18,478 nt of DNA from Promethearchaeota archaeon (GTDB lineage: Archaea > Asgardarchaeota > Lokiarchaeia > Sigyniarchaeales > SOKP01). The notes beneath the pieces were generated by a model. The model made no database searches. It was not told the DNA's origin and saw only the letters and a program-made list of their open reading frames with translations. Numbering within the stretch: the stretch's first letter is position 1; every line of letters begins with the position of its first letter. The position numbers and the translations under genes were made by a program. Shown here piece after piece: positions 5,629-7,551 of the stretch. The stretch is taken from the NCBI GenBank assembly GCA_011364975.1, contig RDOE01000065.1, positions 1 through 18,478 of the forward strand, written 5' to 3'.

Positions 5629-6819
5629 ATGAACTTTTCTTTAGATCATTTTGATAAATACGTAGACCGAACACAGACTTGGTCTATTAAATGGGACCCT
5701 GATTACATGATTGAGAGATTTGGTACAGCAGATTTTCTCCCATTTAACCATGCAGAAATGGATTTTGAATGTCCTAAGCCCATTATTGATGCTATACGAC
5801 AGCGCAGTGATCATGGGATATACGGTTATACATTAGTCAAATCAGACTACTATGATTCTGTTATTCGATGGTATCAGCATCGTCATGGTATTAAGTTTTC
5901 AAAGGAAGAGATTCTCTATTCTACGGGCGTTGTATTTAGTTTAAGAAATGTTATCCAATTTTTTACGAATATAGGAGATAAAATCTTAATTTTCCCTCCG
6001 ATTTACAGACCTTTAGCGGAAGCAGCAACAGATCAAGCTCGAAAACTCATTATGGTCCCCCTTCGCCTTAAAGAAGGAACCTATCAAATGGATTTCGATC
6101 AAATTGAATATGCATTCCAGACTCATTCCATTAAACTAGTCATTTTATGTAATCCTCATAATCCAGTGGGTCGCGTTTGGACGCGCTCAGAATTGCAGCG
6201 TTTAGGTGATTTATGTTTGAATTATAACGTAATGATTGTTTCCGATGAAATTCATTGTGATATCCTCTCACAAGGATATCATTATAGCTCAATTGCATCA
6301 ATTTCTCCTGAATTAGGATTAAAAACAATTATGCTTAGTTCAATGACAAAAACATTTAATACTTCTGGTCTAAAAATCGCTAACATTTTTATTAAAAATC
6401 CTGAAATTAGAATACCTTTTTTCCGGTTTTTCGATAAAAAATTTATTTATGCTCCCAACGTATTTGGAATTCTCGGAATGCAAGCTGCATATAATCACTG
6501 TGCTCAATGGGTGGATTTATTGGTCCAATATTTGGATGATAACTTTCGTTTTGTGCAAGAGTATCTTACAAAACACGAGATGAATATTGACTTAATCCAA
6601 CGTGAAGGCACTCCGCTTATTTGGCTTGATTTCCGAAAAATTCCATTGGCTCCCGATCAAATATTTCAGTATCTCATTAAAAAAGCCCATATTATACCCT
6701 ACGATGGTAGGGATTTCACAGCGAATGGAGAAGGATTTCAACGCTTAAGCATTGGTTATCCTCGCAAAATATTAAAAGAAGGGCTCGATAGGATTAGGAA
6801 GGCAATCCAACTACTCTAA
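5629..6819 (+). CDS. patB: MalY/PatB family PLP-dependent C-S lyase (cystathionine beta-lyase-like)
   Basis: SIKWD, AEMDF, HGIYGY, LCNPHNPVGRVW, SDEIHCD and SMTKTFN (PLP lysine) motifs. Confidence 0.9.
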   Translation: MNFSLDHFDKYVDRTQTWSIKWDPDYMIERFGTADFLPFNHAEMDFECPKPIIDAIRQRSDHGIYGYTLVKSDYYDSVIRWYQHRHGIKFSKEEILYSTGVVFSLRNVIQFFTNIGDKILIFPPIYRPLAEAATDQARKLIMVPLRLKEGTYQMDFDQIEYAFQTHSIKLVILCNPHNPVGRVWTRSELQRLGDLCLNYNVMIVSDEIHCDILSQGYHYSSIASISPELGLKTIMLSSMTKTFNTSGLKIANIFIKNPEIRIPFFRFFDKKFIYAPNVFGILGMQAAYNHCAQWVDLLVQYLDDNFRFVQEYLTKHEMNIDLIQREGTPLIWLDFRKIPLAPDQIFQYLIKKAHIIPYDGRDFTANGEGFQRLSIGYPRKILKEGLDRIRKAIQLL

Positions 6820-6864
6820 ATCAAATATAGAGAGAGCGTTGAATTTAATAAAAAGTTAATTTAG

Positions 6865-6934
6865 GTTTGGTAAGGTGTGGCTAACCATTAAAAGTAAAAT
6901 ATCATGCTTGTTTTCAATTTTACTCTTTCCAAAC
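6865..6934 (-). promoter_or_regulatory. SECIS-like RNA element in the 3' UTR of the selenoprotein gene (circularly permuted eukaryote-type layout)
   Basis: mRNA reads GUUUGG A AAGAGUAAAAU UGAA AACAAGC AUGAU AUUUUACUUUU AA UGG-UUAG-CCA CACCUUA CCAAAC. This gives an 11-bp helix, a tandem G.A core, an AA dinucleotide, a 3-bp mini-hairpin and a 6-bp closing helix. It begins 7 nt after the stop. Folded by eye. Confidence 0.65.
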
Positions 6935-6941
6935 ACATTTT

Positions 6942-7409
6942 TTATATTTTCTCTAAAATTTCGAATAATATTTCGTTTTCAGGAATATCCGACATACTAT
7001 CTCCGTAATAAGCATGCTGAATGATACCTGCTTTATCCACAACTAAAAGTCCCGGCATCCTTCCTCCCTTTAACAATTTTATCTCTTGGTTCAGCATTTT
7101 TGGTACCTTTTTTGAAGGATCGTAGAAGACTGGGTATTTCCGAGCATATTTTTCTTCTAATTTTTTTGCATTTTCTTCAGAATCGGCTAAAATTGGATAA
7201 AGGTAGGTATCCATTTGTTCAAATTTCTCATAATCTTTTCTTAAATGGGCCGCGTGCCATCTACAATAGGGTCAATTTATATTTCGAAACAATACAATTA
7301 CTACTTTTTTCTTACCCTCTAGATCTCTTATATTTACAGATTCTCCTCTAGAATTTGGTAAGGAAAATTCTTGAATTTTCGTACCAACTAGTTGAAATTT
7401 ATCTTTCAA
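6942..7409 (-). CDS. Peroxiredoxin-like (AhpC/TSA, PRX-like2 / SelU-like) selenoprotein, 155 aa, Sec at codon 46
   Basis: The tracked 90-aa ORF extends upstream in frame through one TGA (7272-7274) to a TTG start at 7409, with GTGA SD at 7416-7419. Sequence: MKDKFQLVGTKIQEFSLPNSRGESVNIRDLEGKKKVVIVLFRNIN-U-PYCRWHAAHLRKDYEKFEQMDTYL... The TGA is the first position of a thioredoxin-fold (C/U)xxC motif. Confidence 0.92.
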
Positions 7410-7551
7410 TAATTATCACGCAGAAAGGTTCTTCTAGAAGGTATTTATTGCATCAATAAAAAATTTACTAGTAACTTTCTAATCATTTTAAGACAAGAAT
7501 AAATTATTTAATTTTAAAAAAAAATATTAATGAATATAAAAAAGTTATAAT

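Follow-up and report, generated by a model that had tools for sequence, protein, structure and literature searches.

In an AT-rich contig of 18,478 bases (the window, which is the complete contig; G+C content, 28 to 36%), part of a 3.74-Mb genome bin of 200 contigs, a frame on the minus strand is interrupted by a single TGA. The question raised by this locus is whether the two pieces are one selenoprotein gene and, if so, which signal would cause the TGA to be read as selenocysteine (Sec). We found that the UGA is conserved, that the two pieces form one known fold, that the genome carries the Sec machinery, and that a covarying RNA is linked exclusively to this gene family. Positions 7409 to 6942 very probably encode a 155-residue PrxL selenoprotein of an Asgard archaeon of the Lokiarchaeia type, in which UGA 46 is translated as Sec by way of SelD, PSTK, SepSecS, EFSec, and tRNA-Sec, with recoding most likely brought about by a 77-nt RNA behind the gene. 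The parts of the coding region are as follows.

6942 to 7409, minus strand: probable PrxL (peroxiredoxin-like) selenoprotein gene, 155 codons, TTG start (7409 to 7407) and TAA stop (6944 to 6942)
7272 to 7274, minus strand: in-frame TGA, codon 46, taken here to encode Sec46, which opens the redox box U-P-Y-C
7263 to 7265, minus strand: TGT codon of Cys49, the second position of the redox box and the sole Cys of the protein
7415 to 7419, minus strand: GTGAT, 5 bases upstream of the TTG start, read from the sequence as a possible Shine-Dalgarno-like site

Under translation table 11 the frame breaks into a 45-aa ORF and a 90-aa ORF. The original prediction held that the 90-aa ORF was the C-terminal part of a 155-aa read-through protein with a TTG start and a thioredoxin fold of the peroxiredoxin type, and each of these points was borne out. 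Apart from the TGA at 7274 to 7272 there is no further stop or frameshift between 7409 and 6942, and the motif around Sec46 reads VVIVLFRNIN-U-PYCRWH, with U-P-Y-C at residues 46 to 49, a UxxC box identical to the one predicted. The aligned start is ATG in 14 of 20 orthologues, a Leu codon in 5 (including the present gene), and an Ile codon in 1. The TGA at 7272 to 7274 is unchanged in spanning contigs from two other studies (X13, 0 differences over 6875 to 7433; X19, 3 differences over 6930 to 7430, none of them at the TGA), and these independent assemblies exclude a sequencing error.

The read-through protein matched the Pfam family AhpC-TSA over profile positions 1 to 123 of 124 (E value, 2.7e-23) and Redoxin with an E value of 1.5e-18. 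Because the AhpC-TSA match covers both the 45-aa and the 90-aa pieces, these are halves of one domain. An AlphaFold2 model (pLDDT, 95.6) places Sec46 immediately before the first helix (residues 47 to 58), and the best Foldseek matches were BCP-type peroxiredoxins (Bcp1; TM score, 0.81 to 0.85), with ResA also near. Sec46 aligns with the first Cys of CPYC in the thioredoxin-family structure 3hdc and with the Thr/Ser of the peroxiredoxin T/SxxC motif, in which the peroxidatic Cys aligns with Cys49.

With the read-through protein as query, a search of 41 related genomes recovered 27 places with E values below 1e-20, all 27 with an in-frame TGA (one TGA in 26 places, two in 1). In the 20 orthologues that we fetched, the TGA occupies the identical aligned column, within [FL][RT]xxx-U-P, without exception. 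An even draw of 151 genomes from the phylum gave 34 orthologous places at an E value of 1e-15 or less, of which 33 carry the TGA (29 with one and 4 with two); the sole place without it is a C-terminal fragment at a contig end that holds residues 91 to 152 only. No orthologue with Cys at position 46 was found in these 151 genomes at that threshold. More distant homologues do have Cys at the aligned position, including CPYC in PDB entry 3hdc and CPKC in a haloarchaeal protein in the supplementary alignment of PMC11227280. The check that had been proposed, whether Cys or TGA aligns at position 46, thus came out in favor of the reading, with TGA in all close orthologues and Cys in the distant homologues.

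Selection on the gene was estimated on either side of the TGA. Against orthologue L023, dN/dS was 0.10 upstream and 0.05 downstream, and against L024 it was 0.19 upstream and 0.09 downstream; over three orthologues the values ranged from 0.10 to 0.19 before the TGA and from 0.05 to 0.09 after it, with dS between 0.8 and 1.6. The low ratios on either side of a frozen TGA indicate that both halves of the gene are under purifying selection, and the relaxed selection downstream of the TGA that had been named as a possible sign against the reading was looked for and is replaced by its opposite. Moreover, retention of the TGA by chance is excluded, since the column is kept in all 20 orthologues at dS values near saturation.

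The original prediction also anticipated that automated annotation would split or pseudogenize the gene, and split or misread forms do occur. In public protein sets, all 23 full-length relatives have Trp at position 46, as results from translating TGA with code 4, and the remainder of the 100 database matches are mostly C-terminal pieces of 85 to 106 residues. Some of these pieces are named "peroxiredoxin" or "thioredoxin peroxidase [Candidatus Lokiarchaeota archaeon]." The active site of this protein and its relatives is thus lost or wrong in public records, which hold either truncated C-terminal forms or sequences with Trp in place of Sec.

The same genome encodes the machinery for Sec, as the original prediction had supposed. 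SelD (188 bits) and SepSecS (460 bits) both scored above their cut-offs; SelD itself carries Sec (KIHG-U-SCK), and its 3' untranslated region (UTR) can be read as a SECIS of type II, with AUGA and GA. A PSTK-like gene (166 bits; cut-off, 290) and an EFSec-like gene (bacterial SelB model, 234.5 bits, just below the cut-off of 242) are clear best matches, and both cut-offs come from models built on other lineages. Directly beside SepSecS lies a candidate tRNA-Sec gene that scored 40.3 bits with the Rfam tRNA-Sec model (cut-off, 47), likewise a clear best match. It spans 123 bases (folding energy, −48.3 kcal/mol), with an acceptor stem of 9 bp, a T stem of 4 bp, and a long variable arm of 6 bp; the anticodon, UCA, lies in the loop CUUCAAA, the GCCA end is encoded, and an additional hairpin of about 25 bases sits within the D arm. 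A Loki tRNA-Sec with a 31-nt intron in the T loop is described in PMC4989117; the insertion site in our candidate differs from that 2016 case, being in the D arm rather than the T loop. ARAGORN, run with or without its intron option, called 10 tRNAs in the whole genome and did not call this candidate, and the D-arm insertion may be the reason for both the low Rfam score and the ARAGORN miss. ARAGORN also called a tRNA-Pyl (CTA), but the best PylS match reached 31.7 bits against a cut-off of 178, so that pyrrolysine use is not supported.

Elsewhere in this genome UGA is a stop and not an ordinary sense codon. Trp51, five codons past the TGA, is encoded by TGG; TGA ends 1 of the 14 ORFs in the window; no in-frame stop interrupts the SepSecS, PSTK-like, or EFSec-like gene; and in-frame TGAs were encountered solely in known selenoprotein families, namely, SelD, VhuD (next to HdrA), and PrxL.

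These results bear on two alternatives in which selenium plays no part. The TGA could be a true stop and the locus a pseudogene, two small genes, or an assembly error, as the 45-aa and 90-aa ORFs under table 11 and the public annotations that list the C-terminal piece alone might suggest. We regard this as scarcely credible, given that a single Pfam domain runs across both pieces, that the TGA column is kept in 20 of 20 orthologues despite near-saturated dS with purifying selection on both sides, that independent contigs hold the same TGA, and that the genome has Sec machinery. Alternatively, UGA 46 could stand for an ordinary amino acid (Trp, Gly, or Cys) if the code had changed throughout the genome or if near-cognate read-through occurred, and gene callers have indeed made W-containing full-length proteins from short contigs. 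This too is highly improbable: the TGG codon of Trp51, the absence of in-frame stops from the SepSecS, PSTK-like, and EFSec-like genes, and the restriction of in-frame TGAs to SelD, VhuD, and PrxL all speak against it, homologues have Cys rather than Trp at position 46, and the complete Sec pathway is retained in the genome. We therefore infer that Sec is inserted at codon 46, and we treat the protein as a selenoprotein below.

Selenoproteins of this kind are already catalogued. Mariotti et al. (2016; PMC4989117) described PrxL selenoproteins in Lokiarchaeota as Prx-like proteins with a CxxC-type box in which the first Cys is Sec and with no other Cys, and according to that paper the family had never been functionally characterized. 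Huang et al. (2024; PMC11227280) reported a Prx-like selenoprotein in 43.2% of Sec-using Asgard archaea. The supplementary alignment of the latter study holds sequences of the same subfamily as ours, labeled Lokiarchaeia and Sifarchaeia. Among its entries are LFRNIN-X-PYCRWHAAHLRKD, labeled Lokiarchaeia; the X-PYCRWH motif and L025-like whole sequences, as entries of the form "Lokiarchaeia_..._U"; and likewise the X-PYAKAH form. The present protein has the fold of the family, a box with Sec first, no extra Cys, a conserved UGA, and a host with Sec machinery, and it clusters with the published members. With the family published in 2016 and 2024 and near-identical sequences in the 2024 alignment, the gene is one more example of a known selenoprotein family, and the protein itself adds nothing to the Asgard selenoproteome.

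Within the redox box, Sec46 is the constant residue, since residue 49 varies among Cys, Sec, and Ala/Ser/Thr. Residue 49 is Ala, Ser, or Thr in 9 of 20 orthologues, which leaves those proteins without any Cys, and other orthologues have a second Sec in the box (UxxU). The proteins that have Sec and no Cys (UxxA/S/T) suggest that the important residue is Sec46 and not the Cys aligned with the peroxidatic position. All 24 sequences compared have R117, and it aligns with an Arg of Bcp1 (3drn) that may be the catalytic Arg of the active site. On this alignment Sec46 would take the nucleophilic first-Cys place of a thioredoxin-fold CxxC box, and its selenolate would attack a peroxide or a disulfide. 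The resulting selenenic acid or mixed selenenylsulfide would be resolved by residue 49 when that residue is Cys or Sec and presumably by an outside thiol in orthologues with neither. Among 34 flanking ORFs from 17 orthologous loci, no conserved neighbor was present except among close relatives; since the neighboring genes are not conserved, gene context offers no clue to function or partner.

The published lokiSECIS consists of AUGA, a 9-bp stem, an 11-nt loop (AAAAAnnnnAG), and GA, and it lies right behind the stop codon (PMC4989117). A pattern scan for this 9/11 form from −30 to +230 nt of the stop found it in 0 of 19 orthologue UTRs of the present PrxL subfamily; two matches with 7-bp stems in those UTRs were judged spurious. 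There was no 9-bp/11-nt lokiSECIS-like match anywhere on the contig, and an Rfam scan of positions 6500 to 7500 at an E value of 10 or less gave chance-level matches alone, with no SECIS family among them. We also ran the loose type I eSECIS model from PMC11227280 on 38 UTRs and set it aside, its matches being scattered and at no conserved position. The same pattern scan of the whole genome found six clean lokiSECIS copies, three of them behind HdrA-VhuD pairs with in-frame TGAs, and another PrxL type of the genus (FFRGNW-U-SHC) has a lokiSECIS 10 to 12 nt past the stop at 5 of 8 loci examined (5 of 6 UxxC-type loci). The present gene thus lacks the lokiSECIS in the 3' UTR that helps to define the Loki PrxL genes published earlier.

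Behind every orthologue, the UTRs share an element of 71 to 81 nt. In the present gene it is 77 nt long (6936 to 6860) and begins 5 nt after the stop codon. Its parts are listed below.

6860 to 6936, minus strand: three-way-junction RNA in the 3' UTR, candidate Sec insertion element (covariance model R1, 70.6 bits)
6929 to 6934, minus strand: outer stem, 5' strand GUUUGG, pairing with 6865 to 6870
6865 to 6870, minus strand: outer stem, 3' strand CCAAAC
6890 to 6927, minus strand: hairpin H1, with arms at 6927 to 6917 and 6900 to 6890 and a cap at 6916 to 6901
6914 to 6915 and 6902 to 6905, minus strand: core of the H1 cap, GA (6915 to 6914) opposite AUGA (6905 to 6902)
6874 to 6886, minus strand: hairpin H2 (GGU/ACC), with the conserved loop UAGCCAC at 6883 to 6877
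6850 to 6854, minus strand: T5 run just past the element, a possible archaeal transcription stop

RNAalifold returned an empty structure for a plain MAFFT alignment of 18 UTRs, and the structure was taken from single-sequence folds together with a structure given by hand. Folded singly, most of the 18 copies form the outer stem, a long AT-rich H1, and a short H2 with the loop UAGCCAY; within the H2 region, GTTAGCCA is invariant in 14 of 14 sequences. A covariance model, R1, was built on 14 copies. In its own genome R1 had one match, at 6936 to 6860, among 150 scored of about 14,000 first-look candidates. In the 151 genomes of the phylum it matched 31 places in 27 genomes, 8 genera, and 4 families. 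All 30 of the 30 places examined lie 0 to 2 codons after a PrxL gene with a redox-box TGA, and the 31st lies 20 nt behind a PrxL gene with two TGAs. Model and gene coincide closely in this set: 27 genomes have R1 and 29 have the gene, and R1 matched none of the 122 genomes without it. Of the two gene-bearing genomes that R1 missed, one gave a weak match (26.9 bits with filters off) in the expected position, and the other holds only gene fragments at contig ends. Where gene copies stand in tandem, every gene has its own element.

Pairing within the element was examined over 38 distinct copies. In an alignment fitted to R1, which favors the structure, 95.8% of the cells are paired, and compensatory changes on both sides occur in 17 of 20 pairs. 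The outer stem is 97.7% paired, with changes on both sides in 4 of its 7 pairs, and such changes occur in 9 of 9 pairs of H1 and in 4 of 4 pairs of H2. None of 500 shuffles reached the observed values, and sliding the partners by 1 to 3 columns reduced pairing to 36 to 52%. The compensatory changes are nonetheless plain in the raw sequences, for example, as GGU/ACC, AAGU/ACUU, AACU/AGUU, GAUC/GAUC, and, in the outer stem, UCAAAC/GUUUGA.

We consider the junction RNA to be probably the Sec insertion signal of the PrxL gene. The contrary view, that the gene encodes a selenoprotein while the RNA serves in 3'-end formation, stability, or regulation and Sec insertion depends on another signal, is unlikely in our judgment but has several observations on its side. 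The element lacks the published lokiSECIS arrangement; in the nine UxxA/S/T orthologues the GA/AUGA of the H1 cap has decayed, leaving UUGA or UCGA opposite AUA; and a run of at least five T's lies within 46 nt past the element in 26 of the 38 distinct copies, so that termination could account for part of the element's conservation. On the other hand, from −30 to +230 nt of the stop in 19 orthologues there is no other conserved structure and no canonical SECIS, nor does the contig hold the 9/11 form. In no fewer than four families of the phylum, the element occurs solely with this gene family and its UGA, it sits 0 to 2 codons past the stop, which is the usual lokiSECIS site, and each tandem gene copy has its own.

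If the junction RNA is the insertion signal, as we favor, its form remains to be related to that of a SECIS. An NNGA sequence adjoins the 3' arm of H1 in 35 of 38 copies (AUGA in 19, GUGA in 3, UUGA in 10, and others in 3), and (N)GA followed by adenines adjoins the 5' arm in 22 of 38. The GA and AUGA strands of the H1 cap would oppose each other like a SECIS core. Past the AUGA strand come 9 to 12 paired bases and then an A-rich stretch ending in UAG, the G of which is 20 to 23 nt from GA in 35 of 38 copies; the canonical distance is 9 + 11 = 20. With an AUGA/GA core, a helix, and an A-rich strand ending in UAG at like spacing, the element reads as the parts of a lokiSECIS in another connectivity. 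On this basis we tentatively suggest that the three-way junction could be a circularly permuted, loop-capped ("K-loop") form of a Loki/eukaryote-like SECIS, a reading on which we would place somewhat less than even weight. Against it, the 5' GA is absent in the UxxA/S/T subgroup, and part of the A-rich stretch is base-paired in H2. Set beside the known lokiSECIS and eSECIS-like elements, the candidate AUGA/GA core sits at the top of a hairpin and not at its base, and the helix opens into the junction, where those elements end in an A-rich apical loop (type I) or a ministem (type II).

The unusual part of this locus is a conserved, family-specific three-way-junction RNA in place of a canonical SECIS. 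We found no description of a three-way-junction or otherwise noncanonical Asgard SECIS in the literature searched, to which the SECIS tables of PMC11227280 and the supplement of PMC4989117 did not belong. If the permutation is true, a whole PrxL subfamily in at least four Asgard families has long relied on a SECIS of different topology beside canonical ones in the same cells, and the element would reveal which RNA parts the Asgard SECIS reader needs. According to PMC11227280, an SBP2 homologue was not found in Asgard archaea. An element with some SECIS features kept and the rest rearranged, occurring beside the canonical form, offers a ready set of variants for probing SECIS recognition in Asgard archaea.

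Compared with the PrxL proteins of 2016 and 2024, the present protein has the same AhpC/TSA fold, with Sec first in the redox box (UxxC here and UxxU in some orthologues), likewise has no Cys beyond the box, and comes from an Asgard host with Sec machinery of the archaeal/eukaryotic type. It departs from them in two respects: the 2016 genes as described in PMC4989117 have a canonical lokiSECIS where the present subfamily has the three-way junction, and a 2026 review table gives just UxxC and UxxU for the family, whereas the box is UxxA/S/T in 9 of 20 orthologues here. The bacterial "Prx-like thiol:disulfide oxidoreductase" selenoproteins and SelL-related proteins have, in the review table, the same UxxC/UxxU box in an AhpC/TSA fold but differ from the Asgard gene in host domain and in the type of insertion signal. 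The best NCBIfam match was SelL_rel_redox (NF040769; E value, 4e-12), and its 46.1 bits, far below the cut-off of 120, indicate that the PrxL protein is not a member of the SelL-related subfamily. BCP/PrxQ peroxiredoxins such as Bcp1 of Sulfolobus solfataricus (3drn) are the best match in both sequence (E value, 2.4e-9) and structure. In place of the PxxxT/SxxC motif of a true peroxiredoxin of that class, however, our protein reads R-N-I-N-U-P-Y-C: the Thr of T-x-x-C is Sec46, the Pro four residues earlier is Arg42, and the Cys that aligns with the peroxidatic one is dispensable, 9 of 20 orthologues doing without it.

On the side of the RNA, two known motifs invite comparison. A K-loop is a kink-turn core closed by a loop, as in the archaeal box C'/D' RNAs bound by L7Ae. 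Such motifs have the same tandem GA and UGA strands at a helix end under a short loop as the H1 cap, from which the UxxA/S/T subgroup differs in missing the 5' GA. With the lokiSECIS and the type I eSECIS, the element shares its site right behind the stop and, in part of the copies, an [A/G]UGA that would face GA at the end of a 9- to 12-bp helix. In contrast to the lokiSECIS, its connectivity is reversed: the GA strand precedes the AUGA strand, and a short A-rich cap shuts the core. At its other end the helix leads into a three-way junction, where a second hairpin (loop UAGCCAY) and an outer stem join it.

The redox box of the peroxiredoxin-like (PrxL) protein, U-P-Y-C in the window, varied among orthologues. 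Nine of 20 orthologues carried a U-P-Y-[A/S/T] box and had no Cys anywhere in the protein, so that Sec is the sole redox residue in these proteins. These Cys-less orthologues included those at loci L028-L033, L035, L036, and L041, as well as others, and belonged to the same genus. In the table of a 2026 review, UxxC and UxxU are the only boxes given for the Prx-like family. Different boxes also occurred side by side in tandem gene pairs, and a separate three-way-junction element, the conserved RNA of the PrxL 3' untranslated region (3'UTR), was located 3' of every gene in the following pairs:

G048:C26 5844-7600, tandem PrxL pair, one gene UxxA and the other UxxC
G081:C4 673171-674398, tandem PrxL pair, one gene UxxU and the other UxxC
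G097:C16 24401-25628, tandem PrxL pair, one gene UxxU and the other UxxC

Other neighbors differed among relatives. A heliorhodopsin gene (Pfam E value, 4e-79; L039 556-1395, plus strand) adjoined the PrxL orthologue in one relative, whose genome belongs to the same taxonomic order, and a Snf7 (ESCRT-III) gene (L027 601-1227) adjoined the PrxL gene in another relative.

The PrxL family was present in the public protein collection in two wrong forms: full-length proteins that carry Trp where Sec belongs and come from short contigs of low GC content, and C-terminal fragments of 85 to 106 residues. The Trp forms apparently arose from gene calling with code 4, and three of these records extend beyond the true stop.

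The genome bin holding the window (G000) may encode an additional selenoprotein, judging from a candidate 158-codon frame outside the window (G000:C169 ~63800-64400, plus strand) with two consecutive in-frame TGAs (QPDVGC-U-U-EKV) and a clean canonical lokiSECIS (AUGA, 9 bp, loop ACAAAUACUAG, GA) 23 nt 3' of it. Two more clean lokiSECIS matches were located at C119 ~38611 (minus strand) and C154 ~20448 (plus strand); no TGA-containing frames of at least 90 codons were found ending close upstream of either, and both elements may lie behind small genes, for example VhuU.

The following Sec machinery loci, one of them a candidate, were located in the same bin:

L001 ~1501-1623 (G000:C106 ~34342-34464), minus strand, tRNA-Sec candidate
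G000:C76 9141-9941, minus strand, SelD, with its 3'UTR in L004

The tRNA-Sec candidate, which scored below the Rfam cutoff and was not called by ARAGORN, has an intact T arm and an additional hairpin of ~25 nt inside the D arm; in the 2016 paper (PMC4989117), it is the T loop that is reported to contain the intron of the Loki tRNA-Sec. Because ARAGORN called just 10 tRNA genes in the whole genome despite a bin completeness rated at 99%, we suggest that many tRNAs in G000 are intron bearing or split. One of the 10 calls was tRNA-Pyl (CTA; C21:6638-6714), and PylS was not found in G000 (best match, 31.7 bits versus a cutoff of 178).

The SelD protein contains Sec (HG-U-SCK) and is thus a selenoprotein in its own right. 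The 3'UTR of its gene can be read as AUGA followed by an arm of 8 nt, a bulge containing AAA, a ministem (CAC/GUG), and then GA, in agreement with the type II form given in the literature for Loki SPS.
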